Positions 1,531 to 61,798 of a stretch of DNA of 61,798 nt are shown here, piece by piece. The notes below the pieces were generated by a model, which saw nothing but the letters and a program-made list of their open reading frames with translations, searched no databases and was not told the origin of the DNA. The stretch's first letter is position 1. Each line of letters begins with the position of its first letter. The stretch comes from a virus (taxonomy: Duplodnaviria; Heunggongvirae; Uroviricota; Caudoviricetes): the IMG/VR virus record IMGVR_UViG_3300033233_000007; one strand, given 5' to 3'. The translations under genes were made by a program, and so were the position numbers.

Positions 1531-3608
1531 TGCCGAGACGTAAGGCCGACAGCGCCGTGGGCGAAGAGGATGTCATGGACATCCGGGAACTCGTCCAGGA
1601 ACCGGGCGTCAGGGAGAAAGTCGTCGTTAAGCAGACGCGCGACATCGTGGGCGACAGTCCGCGTGACGCGCTCGAAAGACTGGACGACGCGGACAGGAAG
1701 GCCGCCAAGGCCAATGGCGAAAGCAAGGTCGAAGAAGACATCGTCCAGTTTTCCGACGCCATCACGAAAGCCGGCAACCGCATCGTCGTCTACCGCTACG
1801 CGCCGAAAATCGACCCGGCGACAAACACGGACATCACGGGCCAGGTCGACGTCCTTCCGCCGCCCTTCAGGACCGCCGACCTCGAAGACCACATCAAGAA
1901 GACCCACGGCGGCGGCAAGTATCACATCAGCGCCTTCGGGACCGAGGACGATCAGGTCGAGATCGCCGGCAAGAACCTCGACATCCCCGGCGACCCCATC
2001 GTGATCGGCCCGCAGCGCCCGCGCTTTCAGTTCGAAGAGTACCCGCCCGGCGCGCCGCGCGGGTTGTTCGAAGAAGAAGAGAATCGCGATCCGACGCACA
2101 GGATCATGCAGGACCAACTCAAGACGATGGAGCATCGGCTTCGCGTGGCCGCGATCAACAAGAACATCAAGCGGCTCTCCAAGGACGACGATGACGACGG
2201 CGGTCGCGCTCAGGAAGCGGCGGCTGCCGCGCGCGAGGCCGAAGCCCTGCGGCTGGAACTCGTGAACCAGAAGGCCGACGCCGATCGCCAGCGGCTCGAG
2301 CAGGAGCGGCGCGCCATGGAAGAGCGGCAACGCCGCGAGGTCGACGGCCTCAAGACCGCTTTCGACGCGAAGTTCGAGCGGCTGATGGAGCAGATGGAGC
2401 GCGCCAAGGACGAGGGCGGCGGCACGACGAAGATGATCGAGCTTCAGGCGAAGCTCGATACGATCAAGATGGAGCAGAAGATGGAGATGGAAAGGCTCTT
2501 CATGACGCTGAAGGAGACCTCCAGGCCCCGCGACGACAAGCCCGATGCCATGGTCCAGATCATGCCGCTGTTCATGAAGAGCATGGAGGCCATCGCTCAG
2601 GGCAACCAGCAGCAGTCGAACATGATGATGCAGATGATGCAGCAGAACTCGCAGGCCCAGGCCGCCCAGCAGCAGAGCCAGCTTCAGCAGGCTCAGCAGC
2701 AGCAGACGCTTCTGATGACGCTGATGACGAAGAACACGGAGAACATGATCGGCCTCATCAGCGACGACAAGGACCGGAAGAACCCGCTGACGAACATGAA
2801 GGAGGTCATGTCCATCGCCCGCGAAGTCGCCGAGACTATGGGTGGCGGCGGTTCGTCGGAGCCCAAGGCCTTCGGCGACCGCGTGCTCGACGCCATCGAG
2901 AAGATCGTGCCCGACGTCCTCGAGTTCGTGCGCGAGCGCCAGGAGCGCGGACTCGAAGTGACCAAGAGGGAAATCCAGAACCAGGCGCGCAAGCTCGTGA
3001 CGGATATTTCGCAGAGCGTCGGCGAAGAAGTGCGCGCCGCCCGCGGAGGCAGTTTGCCGCCGGCCCGTCAGGCTGCGACCGCCGCAACTCGCCAGACCGC
3101 CTCGGCCGCTCCGGTCGTCATCGACGCTGATGATCGTCCGGCCGCCGACTATGTGAACTCGTCGCCCATGCAACCCGCGCAGGCCGCGCCGCCGCAGGCG
3201 ATCATCACGCCCGCGCCCGTGCAGGAGGATACGGCTTCGCCGCCTCAGCCGGCCGTCAAGCCCCTGCCCGAGAATTTTGCGGACACGGAGGCGCGGCGTC
3301 GCGTCGAACATGTCCTGCGCGTGCTTCAGGCGGAAGTCCAGGTTCTGCCGGGCATGCAGACGTGGGTCGATGAAGCCCTCAAGCATCTGCCGAAGAAAGT
3401 ACTCGTCGCGGTTGTCGCTTCCGAGAACGACGAGCAGCTTCACGAGGCCGTCAAGCCGTGGGGGTCGCAGGAACTCATGGACAGCATTTGGAACGTCATC
3501 AAAGACAGCGACGACGCTCGCGAGTGGCTCGTCGACGGCATCAACGAACTCAAGGACAGGTACAACGGCGTCGACGAAAACGGCGAAGAGGAGGCCGACG
3601 GTGAGTGA
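1530..3608 (+). CDS. Large coiled-coil, Met/Gln-rich protein (possible morphogenesis factor)
   Basis: 692-aa ORF with heptad-like E/K/Q/M-rich central region. Confidence 0.8.
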   Translation: MPRRKADSAVGEEDVMDIRELVQEPGVREKVVVKQTRDIVGDSPRDALERLDDADRKAAKANGESKVEEDIVQFSDAITKAGNRIVVYRYAPKIDPATNTDITGQVDVLPPPFRTADLEDHIKKTHGGGKYHISAFGTEDDQVEIAGKNLDIPGDPIVIGPQRPRFQFEEYPPGAPRGLFEEEENRDPTHRIMQDQLKTMEHRLRVAAINKNIKRLSKDDDDDGGRAQEAAAAAREAEALRLELVNQKADADRQRLEQERRAMEERQRREVDGLKTAFDAKFERLMEQMERAKDEGGGTTKMIELQAKLDTIKMEQKMEMERLFMTLKETSRPRDDKPDAMVQIMPLFMKSMEAIAQGNQQQSNMMMQMMQQNSQAQAAQQQSQLQQAQQQQTLLMTLMTKNTENMIGLISDDKDRKNPLTNMKEVMSIAREVAETMGGGGSSEPKAFGDRVLDAIEKIVPDVLEFVRERQERGLEVTKREIQNQARKLVTDISQSVGEEVRAARGGSLPPARQAATAATRQTASAAPVVIDADDRPAADYVNSSPMQPAQAAPPQAIITPAPVQEDTASPPQPAVKPLPENFADTEARRRVEHVLRVLQAEVQVLPGMQTWVDEALKHLPKKVLVAVVASENDEQLHEAVKPWGSQELMDSIWNVIKDSDDAREWLVDGINELKDRYNGVDENGEEEADGE

Positions 3609-3900
3609 AAAGGCCAAGACCACGGAAAAGCAGTTCAGCCCGCAGGAGATTTTCGCGGGCTACGTCGCCGTGCTGCACGCCAACACGGAGGCGCTCAGGA
3701 AACACGCGGAGGCCATGTCGAAGTTCGCGAGCGTGCTCGTCGACGTCAAAGACAGCGCCGATGCCGTGCACGACATCATTCTCGAGTACATGAACGAGTT
3801 CGGCGCCGAAGAGGGTGAGGAAGAAGAGGAGCCCGAGGACCCTGGCAAGCCCGATAAGCCGGAGCCCGAGGGCAACGGGCACGACGCGACGAAAACGTAG
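3601..3900 (+). CDS. Small acidic hypothetical protein
   Basis: GTG start overlapping upstream stop. Confidence 0.65.
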   Translation: MSEKAKTTEKQFSPQEIFAGYVAVLHANTEALRKHAEAMSKFASVLVDVKDSADAVHDIILEYMNEFGAEEGEEEEEPEDPGKPDKPEPEGNGHDATKT

Positions 3901-4241
3901 TGGGCAACCTGCGTAACGACGCCGAGGAGGTCATCCTCGACCGCTTCAAGTCGGCGAAGGGCCTCGTTGTTGCCGAGATCGTCCGCGTGATGCGGAAGAA
4001 GAAGATGTCGAATGCCGAACTCGCGAGGCGTCTCGGCGTCAGCGCCCAGTACGTCGGCCAGGTGCTCAAGCGAAAACGCAACGTGACGATCGAGACGCTG
4101 GAGGAGATCGCGCACCATCTCGGCATGGCGTGGTGCTGGACGATGGTAAATATCGATGTTTACCCCGCGGTCGCGAGTTATTTGAAGCTTGTGCAGAAAA
4201 ATTTTCAGGAAGGTGTTGACACGAGGCCGCTGGCCTCCTAA
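3900..4241 (+). CDS. XRE/Cro-C1 HTH transcriptional regulator
   Basis: MSNAELARRLGVSAQYVGQVLKRKRNVTIETLEEIA HTH_3 pattern. Confidence 0.85.
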   Translation: MGNLRNDAEEVILDRFKSAKGLVVAEIVRVMRKKKMSNAELARRLGVSAQYVGQVLKRKRNVTIETLEEIAHHLGMAWCWTMVNIDVYPAVASYLKLVQKNFQEGVDTRPLAS

Positions 4242-4244
4242 TAA
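4216..4244 (+). promoter_or_regulatory. Sigma70-like promoter TTGACA-N17-TAATAA
   Basis: Direct motif match upstream of leader repeat 1. Confidence 0.55.
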
Positions 4245-4259
4245 TGTGACGTCGTAGAA

Positions 4260-4319
4260 AGGGCGGAAGAGTTCGACGACGAACAGTAAAGCCCGGCGAG
4301 AGCTTCGCCGGGCTTTTTT
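4260..4319 (+). terminator. Leader repeat 1: AGGGCGGAAGA-GTTC..GAAC hairpin plus intrinsic terminator
   Basis: AAAGCCCGGCGA..TCGCCGGGC-T6; duplicated at 4561-4620. Confidence 0.75.
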
Positions 4320-4332
4320 CGTTTCGGAGCAA

Positions 4333-4545
4333 ATGACGATAGAACGGGGGAACGGAACGCAGGATGTCTGGAGAGACGTCCATTGCCCAAACTGCGCTGC
4401 CTTCGTCGCGAAATTCGATCATGCCGATGGCCGCGGGTATCTGCGCTGCCGCTCGTGCCCCACGTGGTTCATCGTCGAGTTCCACGGCAATGGGGCGCCG
4501 ACGATTACCCCCGTGCAAAAGAAAGGGACGCAGATGACGGCTTAG
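4333..4545 (+). CDS. Com-like zinc-ribbon regulator
   Basis: DVHCPNC..LRCRSC two CxxC pairs in 70 aa, resembling Mu Com family. Confidence 0.65.
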   Translation: MTIERGNGTQDVWRDVHCPNCAAFVAKFDHADGRGYLRCRSCPTWFIVEFHGNGAPTITPVQKKGTQMTA

Positions 4546-4560
4546 TACGCGTGAGATCGT

Positions 4561-4620
4561 AGGGCGGAAGAGTTCATCAAGAACAGCAAAGCCCGGTGCC
4601 GAAAGGTGCCGGGCTTTTTT
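4561..4620 (+). terminator. Leader repeat 2: same motif plus intrinsic terminator
   Basis: AGGGCGGAAGAGTTC-N5-GAACAGCAAAGCCCGG..CCGGGC-T6. Confidence 0.75.
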
Positions 4621-4657
4621 ATTTGTGGACGTATGGGGAACCAAAGGTCTTGAGACG

Positions 4658-5219
4658 ATGCCTGCCGAAACATATAGCCCGAACGTAACGCTCGCCGACA
4701 TCCCGGCGTCGCGCTTCACGGAAGCAACCATCGGGAAGATGCACCAGTTCGTGCTCGGCGCGGTTTGCGATCCCCACTTCCAGGACCTCGCTTCCAGCAT
4801 CGTCGGCAAGTGCGCCAACAAAGACTACACCTGCGAAGCCAATACCATTTTGAAAGCCGTGAAGTCTCTGGTCCGGTACGTGCGCGATCCCCACGAAGTC
4901 GAACTGATCCAGTCACCGTGGATCACGCTCAGGCGCCGGGCCGGAGACTGTGGATCGGCCCCTCGCGGCGACGCGGGGGGCAAGACGCGACGACATGACA
5001 ACCTTGGTCTCTGCGCTGGCGTCCGCGCTCGGGCACCAGTATCGCTTCGTGACGATCAAGGCCGATGCGCAGAGACAGGCCGAGTGGTCGCATGTCTATC
5101 CCGAGATCATGGTCGGCGGCAAGTGGCTTACCGCCGATGCGTCCGTGGGTCGCAGCTACCTCGGCTGGGAGCCGGAGAAATATTTTGCGAAGGCCGTGTG
5201 GCCGGAGCCGAAACGCTGA
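4658..5219 (+). CDS. Transglutaminase-like cysteine protease interrupted by a 37-nt insert at the catalytic Cys
   Basis: VRYVRDP..GDC in one frame, DDMTTLVSAL..HVY..W..AD in another; removing 37 nt restores GDCDD. Confidence 0.8.
4950..4986 (+). other. 37-nt hairpin insertion (GTGGA...AGAC) with GCGA tetraloop
   Basis: GCCCCTCGCG-GCGA-CGCGGGGGGC stem; boundaries ambiguous by a few nt. Confidence 0.75.
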
Positions 5220-5258
5220 ATGCTCGGACACTGAGGAACAAGGTCGCAAAGCCCGTGT

Positions 5259-6026
5259 ATGGCTAACTTCGAAGCCGACATACCGCCCGACGTTTTCGGC
5301 CCCGAGATGGTCGGAAGCGACAGGGCGCTGGCGCCGCGACTGACGCTCCGTCACGTCCCCGACGGCGGCGATCTCGTCCTGCGCGCCAACGCCGGAGAGT
5401 CCTCGACGGGCCTGCCCATCCTCTCGGGCGCCCGCGGCACGGAGCGCCGGCAGATCAACGCCGCCGATCAGGAGCTTCCGCATTTCCGGCCGCCGACGGC
5501 GACGTGGCAATCCCAGGTTCCTCTCTACTCCGCTCAGGCGTGGCAGGTCCCGCCGGTCGTCACCGGCATTCCCAAGTTCGGCAGGTCCGTCGATCAGTTT
5601 TACGTCCCCGAAGGTGAGATTCTTGACCTGATGTCCCGTGACCTTATGCCTCAGCCTTACGAGGCGACGGCGATTGTTCCCGTTCCCTCTGGAGGAAACA
5701 TGCAAGGATTCGGACAGGAGTTTGACCAGCAGGCCGTGGCCGAAAAGGCGATCGTCGACGTCGGCATCAAGCCCAGTGACCCGTGGTGGCAGCAGGCCCT
5801 CAACGTCGCGCTCGGCACGGTGCAGACCATCACCGCACAGAAGCAGCAGGTGGCCGATCAGAAGGCGCGGGAGCGGGAACTCGAGCTTCAGATTCGCGCG
5901 CAACAGGCGGGACTCACCATCCCCGGTCTGGCGCCCAAGGCCGGTGCACTGTCATCGCCGTGGGTTCTCATTCCCGTTGTCGGGATCGCCGCCTACCTTA
6001 TTTACACCCAGGTCGCCAAGCGTTAG
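5259..6026 (+). CDS. Putative virion membrane protein, C-terminal TM; possible internal start at 5700 (MQGFGQ)
   Basis: C-terminal hydrophobic helix plus basic tail; GGAGG before internal ATG. Confidence 0.75.
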   Translation: MANFEADIPPDVFGPEMVGSDRALAPRLTLRHVPDGGDLVLRANAGESSTGLPILSGARGTERRQINAADQELPHFRPPTATWQSQVPLYSAQAWQVPPVVTGIPKFGRSVDQFYVPEGEILDLMSRDLMPQPYEATAIVPVPSGGNMQGFGQEFDQQAVAEKAIVDVGIKPSDPWWQQALNVALGTVQTITAQKQQVADQKARERELELQIRAQQAGLTIPGLAPKAGALSSPWVLIPVVGIAAYLIYTQVAKR

Positions 6027-6242
6027 ATGAACTATCTCGGACAAGCGGACGCTCTGGGTACGAGCATCGCACGCGCCCTGCAACCGACGGTCGACGCGCT
6101 GGCCGGCCGCATCCGGCCCATCATCGCCGAGGAAATCCAGAAGAACGTCCCCACGGCCGCGACGATCTTCGGCCTCTCCGTGGGCGGCGCGGTTATCGCC
6201 GGCCTCATTCTGGGCGGCTATCTCTATGGAAGGCGCGGCTAA
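6027..6242 (+). CDS. Small membrane protein
   Basis: 71 aa, C-terminal TM then GRRG. Confidence 0.75.
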   Translation: MNYLGQADALGTSIARALQPTVDALAGRIRPIIAEEIQKNVPTAATIFGLSVGGAVIAGLILGGYLYGRRG

Positions 6243-6988
6243 TGCCATTTTTTATGCCCTCGTTCGTCACGACGCGCGACGCCTACACGCCGCAGCAATC
6301 TTCGCGCGTTGAGGCCGGCTATCGCGGGGCGCCGATCTACTCGAGCCGCGAAATGGCCAAGGGAGTGAAGATCGATCCATACCAGGGGCCCGCCCGCGGC
6401 GTGGCCGGACTCGGGCAGGAAGTCTATCTGGGCAAGCTCAGAATGCAGACGGGCGACCGAAGCGCGCTCTTCCATCGCACGCAGGACCTGTGGACGGGTC
6501 TTGACGCGCTGAAGAAACGAATCGCAGGAATCGGCGACGACGTCTGGAAGGTCGCGCAGAACCGGGTCTCGGGCCTGCCGACGAAGACGGCGGCTCTTGC
6601 CATGGTCGAGTCCCCGTCGAAAATTCAGTCCCTCTGGGACGCGTTCGACAAGACCTGCGAGACGTCGTGGATTCCCGGCTTCGACCTCGCGTGTAACAAC
6701 GACGCTTACGCCCAACTCGTCGCCGTGATGGACGCCGCGTCGGCTCACCAGATCGTGGTTGAGCGGCACGTCGCCACCGTCCTTAATACGGTCACGACGG
6801 ACGAACAGAGAAAAATCAGAGACGTGGGGTTCCAGCGGTTCATGGAACTTCAGGTCGAGCGCGTCAAGGAGCCCGCGCCCGTCGGCGGCTTCAGTCTTGG
6901 TGGCATCCTCACGATCGCCGGCATCGGCCTCGCCGCCTTCCTCTTTCTTCCGCGCGTCAGCGAATTCATGAGAGCGGTCAAAAAGTAA
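6242..6988 (+). CDS. Putative virion membrane protein, C-terminal TM
   Basis: TAATG coupling; TM LGGILTIAGIGLAAFLFL. Confidence 0.75.
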   Translation: MPFFMPSFVTTRDAYTPQQSSRVEAGYRGAPIYSSREMAKGVKIDPYQGPARGVAGLGQEVYLGKLRMQTGDRSALFHRTQDLWTGLDALKKRIAGIGDDVWKVAQNRVSGLPTKTAALAMVESPSKIQSLWDAFDKTCETSWIPGFDLACNNDAYAQLVAVMDAASAHQIVVERHVATVLNTVTTDEQRKIRDVGFQRFMELQVERVKEPAPVGGFSLGGILTIAGIGLAAFLFLPRVSEFMRAVKK

Positions 6989-10550: not shown

Positions 10551-11450
10551 ATGATCGGTCAAGTCACGGCTCCGGCTCGTCCCGGTGCCGCACCGGCCGG
10601 CGTCCAGTACATCGTCGGGACGCCCCCGCAGACGCCGGTTCTCCGGCCTCTGCGCCAGCCGATTTTCGATTCCGAGCTTCTGCCGGGCGCGCCGGCGACG
10701 TTCGGTGAGACCCAGATTCACGTCGACCCGCGGAACTTCGCGTTGACCGGCGCCCCCAAGGGCCCGGCCGACACGAACATGACGCAGCCGTCGAGCCTGG
10801 GTACGCCGCTGGAGTTCGATCTGGTCGGCTTCAACTTCCAGATCAACCGCGGCGTCTCGCGCGTGAACAGCAACACGGTGTACAACAACGGCGCGTACGA
10901 GTGGATTTTCGGACAGTCCACGCGCTGGCTGAACACCCAGTTGTCGCGCGTGCCCGAGGGCGTCGCGGCCTTCGGCAGCGTCTCGACCGCCGTGGCCGGC
11001 ACGGAGGCGTCCATTCTGTCGAATGGGTGGCCTCAAGTCACAAATCTCTTCAACTTCACGACGCCCGACAGGCTCGCCCGTCGGATCACGTCGACGGAGT
11101 CGTTCAGATTGATCCTGCGGTTCAATGCGGCCACCGCGTTCACCGCTGGTACTGGTGACACGCGGTTGACTAACTTTATGTTGGGCATTCTGTGAAGAAG
11201 TGCAGCGCCATTGGGCGACTGATGGTGGAAAACCTGAATATCGGGGGAACTCTCGGTTTATTGACCGAGACAATCTCCGACGCGTCAACGGCTCAGCCGC
11301 ACGCGCGAGAGACTGACAAGGGCGTCTCGCTTAACGAGACGATGATACAGTCCGACCTCCACGGCGACGTGGAGAGCGGGTCGGAAACGACTCGCCGCCT
11401 GACGTTTGTCGTCAGGTCCAGCAAGCAACAGCCCAGACAGCCAACTGTAA
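10551..11450 (+). CDS. Putative single-jelly-roll major capsid protein, join(10551..11193,11437..11450)
   Basis: Beta-rich, GPADTNMTQPSSLGTPLEFDL motif; splicing gives ...MLGILYSQL*. Confidence 0.7.
11194..11436 (+). ncRNA. Group I self-splicing intron, ORF-less, 243 nt
   Basis: P1 CUGU/GCAG with U-G pair; P4 UCGGGG/CUCCGA; P7 GACUG(11311-15)/CAGUC(11348-52); P8; P9 hairpins; terminal G; restores frame. Confidence 0.9.
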
Positions 11451-60877: not shown

Positions 60878-61510
60878 CTATTTCGCCCCTTTCCGGCCAC
60901 CGGCGGCCCTTTTAGGGGCATTCCAGTCGGGAAGCGCAAACCCCTCGGACAGCTTGGCCCGGTCGTCCTTGACCCGAATAGCGTGAAGGTACCTATCCGT
61001 CGAACTGATCGACGTGTGTCTGAGCAGGGACTTGATGCGAATGGCCTCCATGCCGCTCTGGGCGGCGTCCATCGCCAGCGTGTGCCGCAAACTGTGGATG
61101 CCGCGTTTCGGCATCTTGATCCCCGCCGCCGTCGCGTACTTGTCGAACGCCTCCTGCGCACGGCGCTTGTGGCTGTAGCCGAGCAGGGGCTCGTCGGGGC
61201 CCTGGCCGATCTCTTTGATCCGCCGTAAGAGCGCCTCACGCACAACAGGAGGGCACTCGATCTCGTCGATTTGATCGTGCTTCTGTTTGAGCGTATGGAC
61301 CTTGAGGACGCCAAGCACCCGGTCGAAGTCGCCCGCGTACAAGCTCACCGCCTCTTTGACGCGAAGGCCGCATCGAGAAACGACGAGGAACAGCGTATGC
61401 GCCTGCGCGTCACGCGCCTTGACCGTAGCGTCCAGCAGACGGTTTAGCTCATCGCGGTCCAGCCACTTATACCGCTTAAGCTGGTTGGCGCTTCCCGTGA
61501 ACTGGCTCAC
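60878..61510 (-). CDS. Tyrosine recombinase, catalytic domain only
   Basis: GLRVKE, HSLRH, LRHTSISSTDRY. Confidence 0.92.
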   Translation of the reverse strand: MSQFTGSANQLKRYKWLDRDELNRLLDATVKARDAQAHTLFLVVSRCGLRVKEAVSLYAGDFDRVLGVLKVHTLKQKHDQIDEIECPPVVREALLRRIKEIGQGPDEPLLGYSHKRRAQEAFDKYATAAGIKMPKRGIHSLRHTLAMDAAQSGMEAIRIKSLLRHTSISSTDRYLHAIRVKDDRAKLSEGFALPDWNAPKRAAGGRKGAK

Positions 61511-61512
61511 CC

Positions 61513-61798
61513 CTACTCCCCCATCCCCGGCGGCCACGCGACGCAGCGCACCACCGATTTCTCGCCGAGGCCGCCATACTCGACGGCCTCGCCCTCATAC
61601 GCGCCTCTGGCGAACAGCCGCCAACCGTCCTCGCCCCACAGCAACGTCGCCAAGCGGGTGATCTCCTTGACGCACAGGGCGCGCTCCATCGCTCCCGTCT
61701 CGGCGCACATCGTCCACGGCAAGAGTTTAGGCCCGGCCTCACGATCGCGGCCCTCGACAGCCGTCTCGACCGCGCGGATGCTGGCAAGGTCCACGAGC
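61513..61798 (-). CDS. Hypothetical protein, 5' end beyond window
   Basis: Open frame to edge. Confidence 0.5.
   Translation of the reverse strand, partial: LVDLASIRAVETAVEGRDREAGPKLLPWTMCAETGAMERALCVKEITRLATLLWGEDGWRLFARGAYEGEAVEYGGLGEKSVVRCVAWPPGMGE

Follow-up and report, generated by a model that had tools for sequence, protein, structure and literature searches.

A 37-nt hairpin insert in the catalytic cysteine codon of a phage protease-fold gene: a candidate case of translational bypass

A gene of the transglutaminase/papain-like fold in a phage is broken by 37 nt placed inside the codon for its catalytic Cys, and the broken gene recurs, with the identical insert, in a second, clearly diverged lineage. 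Both halves of the gene are under purifying selection, each in its own reading frame. Since this selection is accompanied by an invariant insert, the gene is probably still in use, through some form of expression across or around the gap. The explanation that fits best is that ribosomes cross the gap by programmed translational bypass in the manner of phage T4 gene 60, a reading which we favour only tentatively and hold with less than even confidence. In the following, we describe the interrupted gene within the 61,798-nt stretch of phage DNA that was analysed (hereafter the window), its insert-free relative and the selection acting on it, and weigh bypass against the other ways in which the gap might be tolerated or removed.

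The interrupted gene and its insert-free relative

The gene opens in frame 2 at ATG 4658, from which 98 residues ending in ...RRRAGDC are translated up to the Cys codon TGT 4949-4951, and it continues in frame 0 from 4986/4989, encoding (R)DDMTTLVSALASALGH... as far as TGA 5217-5219 (Table 1). Alignment with the closest intact homologue, P0004, places a clean 37-nt insert between the T and the GC of the catalytic Cys codon, which confirms the hairpin insert that the earlier note had located at this codon from the letters alone. Owing to a shared G and to the T/C wobble in the Cys codon, the insert can be placed equally well at 4950-4986, 4951-4987 or 4952-4988. The only way found to restore the GDCDD motif was to take out exactly these 37 nt, and the invariant or near-invariant residues of the family alignments (GDCDD, WSHV and the Asp of AD) are all kept across the two halves.

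The GC stem with a GNRA loop, likewise noticed earlier, was borne out by folding: the hairpin has 10 bp, including one U.G pair, closed by a GCGA loop, with a predicted energy of -23.4 kcal/mol and a z score of -4.5, and none of 200 shuffled sequences folded as well. The whole insert is predicted to be closable by a further, weak basal helix of 3 bp (4950-4952 with 4986-4988). There is no target-site duplication at the insert beyond 1 nt. Frames 2 and 0 are both open from 4908 to beyond 4988, and read-through in frame 2 past TGT meets no stop for 105 further codons. This read-through ends at TAA 5264-5266, overlapping the ATG of the next gene (5259), so that ribosomes which have not crossed the gap could be coupled into this next gene.

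Table 1. Features of the interrupted gene, in window coordinates
Feature	Position	Strand	Basis and remarks
N-terminal half of the transglutaminase-like Cys-protease-fold gene	4658..4951	+	98 codons, frame 2; translation; 72% identity to P0004 residues 7-99; dN/dS 0.12 vs L005
37-nt frame-breaking insert (coding gap)	4950..4986	+	Absent from the intact homologue in L001/L002; identical in L003/L004, L005 and L006
10-bp GC-rich stem with GCGA (GNRA) tetraloop	4958..4981	+	Fold -23.4 kcal/mol, z -4.5; hairpin inventory
G6 run in the 3' arm of the hairpin; SD-like; possible +1 slip site GGG_G	4975..4980	+	Sequence; ends 5 nt before CGC 4986
CGC, the codon needed as landing site of peptidyl-tRNA-Cys before GAC GAC ATG	4986..4988	+	Enumeration of take-off/landing pairs; 2/3 match to UGU
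C-terminal half, DDMTTL..., with the WSHV His and the AD Asp; stop TGA 5217-5219	4989..5219	+	Frame 0; translation; 76% identity to P0004 residues 100-175; dN/dS 0.18
In-frame ATG, gene-caller start of the 74-aa C-fragment P0018	4995..4997	+	Calls in L003-L006; no SD at proper spacing

The closest intact relative, P0004 (175 aa), is encoded on a 14.9-kb JGI contig (L001) and on a Logan contig (L002), and shares 72% identity with the N-terminal and 76% with the C-terminal half of the window gene. At the junction, its DNA reads GGAGACT followed immediately by GCGACGAC (in the longer form, GGAGACT followed by GCGACGACATG), without the insert, and a counterpart of ATG 4995 is already present in it. 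Gene order around the locus is the same as in L001, and throughout the syntenic block this gene alone carries a frame break. A search of 5.8 billion proteins gave no insert-free allele nearer than P0004 (72%), and no close relatives were found in IMG/VR with the C-half as query or in phage records by blastn. A metagenome scan with the N-half alignment also returned no match; its patterns were poor and missed L001 itself, so this is a weak negative. The family members in IMG/VR are at most 46% identical to the gene and most of them match contiguously across the Cys codon, and hence they are uninformative on the insert.

The family comprises about 3,500 representatives at E values up to 0.001, and its Cys, His (of WSHV) and Asp vary little or not at all across the family alignments, all three being invariant in alignment A7. 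PF01841 is recorded on P0004 and several of its relatives, and the C-half itself gives a weak match to this profile (E 0.0024, below the gathering score). In the AlphaFold (AF2) model of P0004 (pLDDT 88), Cys99 is the first residue of a helix spanning 99-112, and the Foldseek matches are transglutaminase/papain-like Cys proteases, with 3isr, LapG, CPR-C4 and PeiW at the top and with PeiP and PNGase also among them. On this modelling, the product of the interrupted gene is predicted to adopt a transglutaminase/papain-like Cys-protease fold with a Cys-His-Asp triad and a putative enzymatic activity. Fold, triad and the place of the Cys at the start of the central helix are common to the interrupted protein and the PF01841 proteases (PDB 3isr, LapG 4fgq, CPR-C4 7ob6, PeiW 8jx4), whereas the interrupted protein belongs to a phage-borne subfamily with those ~3,500 relatives. 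Among INPHARED phage records, gp34 of Salisaeta icosahedral phage 1 is the sole relative. Of the earlier name, putative maturation protease, the protease-like fold stands; as a maturation protease it is still a guess.

Upstream of the gene, a strong sigma-70-like promoter (4216-4245; TTGACA, 18 nt, AATAAT) precedes a gene for a 70-aa four-Cys Zn-ribbon protein (4333-4545), which is flanked by a pair of almost identical 13-bp terminator hairpins (4288-4316 and 4588-4617); the interrupted gene follows the second of them. In the insert-free L001 there is a diverged Zn-ribbon ORF, with a similar terminator hairpin before it; a link between the insert and this upstream (Com-like) gene was rejected, as its counterpart holds the same position in L001. 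A 474-aa DUF6745 gene stands upstream of the locus in L001 (3799-5223 of that contig), and the window is without it. Further away, the window encodes a phage peptide deformylase (48303-48971, minus strand; PF01327, E 2.5e-43) and a tyrosine recombinase of the phage integrase family (60878-61537, minus strand; PF00589, E 3.7e-18).

Occurrence of the insert and selection on the gene

The 74-aa product that gene callers start at ATG 4995 (P0018) is on record from a JGI/IMG contig of 125.8 kb, an ENA contig of 81.3 kb and Logan, and the same break is therefore present on each of these contigs; the ENA contig, with MEGAHIT-style k141 names, is base-identical to the window across the site. A cluster sister of P0018 at 91% identity (P0019) leads to Logan contigs L005 and L006 from two other runs, which match the window at only ~80% identity across the 4 kb around the site and which carry the identical 37 nt in the identical position. 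Surveyed across homologues, the insert is thus found unchanged in a diverged second lineage and is absent from L001/L002, no more than two lineages being known to bear it; all of the assemblies of the two insert-bearing lineages, at least five in number, have it, and the ENA and Logan contigs come from at least three datasets. Sequencing errors can occur at hairpins, but an artefact of sequencing or assembly is scarcely credible when the same insert is seen in those ENA and Logan contigs and in both lineages, with the same 74-aa C-fragment recorded from JGI/IMG, and the misassembly that the earlier note had allowed for is in effect excluded.

The insert was sought elsewhere as well. There is no second copy in the 61.8-kb window, the genome and metagenome collections contain no match to a 32-nt pattern of it (28 specified bases around an unspecified 4-nt loop), and IMG/VR has none to a 25-mer of it. 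Of the 24-nt stem-loop alone there is one occurrence in a Limnocylindrales MAG and one in a Streptomyces genome, in both cases terminator-like and with different flanks, and two such matches are about what chance would give. Rfam gave no match in 4600-5300 at E values up to 10, and none at the gathering score across 1-61798, a range that includes 11184-11450, where a proposed group I intron gets no backing from Rfam at that threshold. Several identities were considered and rejected. A mobile repeat of the REP, MITE or GC-cluster type (GTGG head plus palindrome) is unsupported, given the single copy in the window and the lack of family copies in the collections, and so is a CRISPR or TIGR repeat, given the lack of an Rfam match and of any similarity elsewhere in the window. 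A SECIS-like element would have an in-frame UGA, which is not present, and the insert is out of frame. For an element of the IS200/IS605 type, AGAC is common to the left flank and the right end of the insert, but the 38-nt spacing would not restore the frame.

Over both halves, the window and L005 differ by 28.5 synonymous and 16.5 non-synonymous changes (dS 0.283, dN/dS 0.149), which rejects neutrality for the interrupted gene as a whole (binomial P 4e-9). By half, dN/dS is 0.12 in the N-half and 0.18 in the C-half (C-half P 5e-4), and neither half has an indel or a stop in either lineage. Together with the retention of the conserved family residues, this upholds the earlier observation that both halves are otherwise intact; decay of the downstream half in relatives, which would have spoken against a working gene, is not seen in the two insert-bearing lineages. 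The constraint on the C-half is in frame 0, and the same changes would mostly be amino-acid replacements in the read-through frame. As the dN/dS of the gene equals its long-term value against the insert-free L001 (0.14-0.18) and is similar to the values for five of its six compared neighbours (0.12-0.25; a 248-aa gene has 0.53), selection has not been relaxed. None of the 37 positions of the insert differs between the lineages (P 4.7e-5 at the synonymous rate of the gene, 0.010 at the lowest local rate), while in the seemingly functional terminator hairpin at 4588-4617 at least 8 positions have changed between the window and L005.

Divergence around the insert is low. Between the window and L005, dS of the interrupted gene (4658-5219) is 0.28 compared with 0.46-1.1 in its neighbours (3600-6988), pS in the 62 codons upstream of the insert is 0.12 compared with 0.30 elsewhere (P 0.025), and 4766-4999 has 5 differences, compared with 17 for the 108 nt before it. 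The 5 changes in this low-divergence tract are all synonymous and none is non-synonymous (P 6.6e-4). The halved dS suggests either a mosaic exchange of the segment or an extra constraint at synonymous sites. From the low dS of the gene and the lower pS upstream, the insert-bearing segment may have recombined between the lineages; the lower synonymous rate upstream could equally mean that RNA signals precede a recoding site.

These patterns bear on the most serious rival, according to which the gene is dead: a neutral or selfish hairpin insertion would have spread between co-circulating phages by recombination or gene conversion, and the selection signal would mostly predate the insertion. We consider this unlikely. 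A clean fit of the locus to a known mechanism is lacking, the divergence is unusually low near the insert, and a dS about half that of the neighbours suggests segment exchange, all of which such a history would accommodate. On the other hand, the purely synonymous changes in the low-divergence tract and the unchanged insert (even at P 0.010) are hard to reconcile with it, as is a C-half that retains its low dN/dS with no indel or stop in either lineage. In addition, a close intact allele is absent from the 5.8 billion proteins, the insert is fixed in every one of the assemblies, and the identical flanks of the insert, 34 nt on the left (4916-4949) and 13 nt on the right (4987-4999), are short for homologous exchange. 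The dead allele raised by the earlier note is accordingly disfavoured by a dN/dS of 0.15 over the two halves and by the invariant insert, and is kept as a rival at lower weight.

Translational bypass and its precedents

Since each half is selected in its own frame, ribosomes either change frame between 4952 and 4988 or restart. At UGU 4949-4951, the third-rarest codon of the phage (2.3 per 1000 codons), a ribosome would, under bypass, hold the nascent chain on tRNA-Cys, and it would meet the stable GNRA hairpin 6 nt downstream, where it would uncouple from the message and slide by ~37 nt. The SD-like G tract at 4975-4980 would then position it 5 nt further, at CGC 4986-4988, and translation would resume at GAC GAC AUG, so that the active-site GDCDD would be restored at a reduced dose. 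The junction peptide of such an exact-skip product would be AGDC-DDMTTLVSALASALGHQYR/AGDCDDMTTLVSALASALGHQYR. We infer the full-length product, its crossing by ribosomes and these take-off and landing sites from the sequence and its comparison.

The TGT-to-CGC bypass named in the earlier note has remained the leading idea, but without the matched codon pair. When take-off and landing pairs were enumerated, none was found that is read by one tRNA and restores GDCDD: UGU 4949 and CGC 4986 would allow pairing at two of three positions only, and the matched pairs that are available (GAC to GAC, CGC to CGC, GGA to GGG and a GGG slip) would delete Cys-Asp or add 4-12 residues. There is no stop or hungry codon after take-off, the next codon being GGA, which is not rare (14% of Gly codons, 11.8 per 1000), with no in-frame stop for 105 codons. 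The stem-loop begins 6 nt past the take-off codon and does not enclose it, and the GGG at 4978-4980, which sits 5 nt before CGC 4986, is also part of the 3' arm of the hairpin. No homing endonuclease adjoins the site, the neighbouring genes being without nuclease domains in Pfam. Because the matched codons, a defining feature of the gene 60 family, were looked for and found absent, the case is taken to work like gene 60 and is not filed as a member of that family.

To our knowledge, natural bypassing has been shown only in a few systems, namely T4 gene 60 and its homologues, yeast mitochondria and one candidate in a Streptomyces phage. The gene 60 homologues in MobA cassettes have gaps of 20-50 nt (50 nt in T4), a mini-SD of the GGG/GAG type 5-7 nt 5' of the landing codon, and a compact stem-loop, placed towards the 5' end of the gap and closed by a UUCG tetraloop or, in some members, by a GNRA one (Manning and Atkins, bioRxiv 10.1101/2022.08.31.505936). 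Homologues of gene 60 also come from Bonocora et al. 2011, as cited in PMC5009743. The present gap resembles that of gene 60 in that it is short, non-coding and set inside an invariant motif of a conserved phage enzyme, has a compact stem-loop with a stable tetraloop in its 5' part and a GGG 5 nt before the required landing codon, joins ORFs in different frames (some gene 60 members shift frame too), and has nucleotides conserved above the synonymous rate. It differs in that the take-off codon lies outside the stem-loop, in that no homing endonuclease (MobA/MobE) is adjacent, and in its host gene, which is a transglutaminase-like protease here and a topoisomerase there; the two are without sequence similarity.

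Two other systems are also comparable. In the mitochondria of Magnusiomyces capitatus, the 'byp' elements are likewise short frame-breaking blocks that are skipped in translation, but there are 81 copies of them in one mitochondrial genome, in contrast to the single copy in the window of a bacterial virus, and an unused A-site codon and mitochondrial ribosomes are features of 'byp' (PMC5009743). A landing on two out of three paired positions, as would be needed at CGC 4986, has its only precedent in yeast mitochondria (PMC5009743). In the terminase of Streptomyces phage Hau3, short inserts likewise break a phage gene, with a stem-loop and an SD as candidate signals, and mass spectrometry revealed the junction peptide in E. 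coli (PMC10732093). The gap in Hau3 is 10 nt and a rare UUA serves as trigger (PMC10732093), whereas the gap described here has 37 nt and no such A-site trigger codon.

A long-range pairing that might bridge the gap was also considered. A bipartite helix of ~16 bp is predicted between the end of the N-half and the start of the C-half (4932-4949/5006-5023), enclosing the insert, and a similar pairing is predicted in the insert-free L001. As a bridging structure it was rejected: its z score is only -1.2, and in L005 one change keeps a pair while two break pairs.

Other routes around the gap and their meaning

Apart from a dead gene, three routes compete with bypass. In the first, the enzyme would be split, an N-fragment (98 residues with an out-of-frame tail, or cut at the hairpin) assembling non-covalently with a C-fragment started at ATG 4995 or GTG 4950. 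Such an arrangement would keep selection on both halves; an in-frame ATG, used by gene callers, lies two codons past the break, and a GGAG precedes GTG 4950. We nevertheless regard it as quite unlikely. The phage has SDs of the GGAG type at 5-9 nt on many of its genes, whereas ATG 4995 is without an SD at proper spacing, the only G-run standing 14 nt upstream, and the restart at this ATG proposed by the earlier note thus lacks the Shine-Dalgarno signal that the phage itself uses. GTG 4950 lies only 3 nt after its GGAG and 8 nt before the -23 kcal/mol hairpin, and no promoter for the C-half was found inside the gene. Moreover, no stop follows the break, so that upstream ribosomes would overrun the start of the C-fragment for 105 codons, and, in the model, the break parts the catalytic Cys from the helix which it begins, a poor split point.

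In the second route, the 37 nt would be cut from the RNA at the base of the hairpin and the exons rejoined by host or phage enzymes, as a mini-intron. This is distinctly improbable, even though only exact removal restores GDCDD and every base of the insert is conserved. RNase III leaves a 2-nt 3' overhang, and the predicted basal helix (4950-4952/4986-4988) would put the junctions of register 4952-4988, one of the three, at just such an overhang. RNase III also excises hairpin inserts, the intervening sequences, from bacterial 23S rRNA at the base of the stem, leaving fragments that stay unjoined. The present insert is like these in being a hairpin in a conserved gene; unlike the rRNA, however, the mRNA here would need ligation. 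Rfam returned no match even at E values up to 10, and a Pfam scan of 36 ORFs of the window revealed neither a nuclease domain nor an RNA ligase, an RtcB or an RNase III. We know of no bacterial precedent for the excision and rejoining of such a hairpin in an mRNA. A true mini-intron, in which both strands at the foot of an extended 41-nt hairpin in the mRNA would be cleaved with RNase III-like geometry and the exons re-ligated, is a still longer shot; if true, it would mean that a bacterial virus splices mRNA with neither a group I nor a group II ribozyme.

Known intron classes were also examined and rejected. At 37 nt, the insert falls far short of the size of group I and group II introns. 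Group II introns have a 5' GUGYG, domains I-VI, a domain V with an AGC triad and a 2-nt bulge, and a 3' AY; the insert begins with GUGGA, and its hairpin is fully paired, without AGC triad or bulge. The letters of the GUG...AC ends remarked upon earlier are therefore present but have no support as intron boundaries, and the minimal group II-like or trans-spliced intron to which they had pointed is not upheld, there being no Rfam match and no feature of domains V or VI. The archaeal bulge-helix-bulge consists of two 3-nt bulges at the splice sites with a 4-bp helix between them. By inspection, such geometry is missing here: the predicted internal loops are near-symmetric, and, in the register that would be needed, 4951-4954 against 4982-4985 pairs at only one of four positions.

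The third route, which we rate no higher than excision, is a +1 frameshift or quadruplet decoding within the insert, for instance a GGG_G slip at 4976-4979, which would place 12 extra residues between the Cys and the Asp-Asp and yield a diagnostic peptide of the type GDCGSAPRGDAG-ARRDDM. The overlap of open frames 2 and 0 from 4908 to beyond 4988 would permit it, and perfect re-pairing is possible on the G6 run. Frameshifting of the prfB type depends on a re-pairing P-site codon, a slow A-site codon and an SD 3 nt upstream; at the G-run there is no slow A-site codon, GGC being the commonest Gly codon, and there is no correctly spaced SD (none at 3 nt). In the model, the added loop would fall in the first turn of the catalytic helix 99-112, of which Cys99 is the first residue, and a translated loop would not require all 37 nt to be invariant.

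For annotation, the case means that a conserved enzyme of the virion module is entered by gene callers as a 74-aa orphan and the gene is missed. For the phage, the hairpin could set the dose of the enzyme. More generally, this is a selected gap without the matched codon pair that is thought to define landing. If it is crossed by bypass, structure and rRNA pairing alone can position ribosomes; if it is not, there would be some new means by which a bacterial message loses 37 nt.
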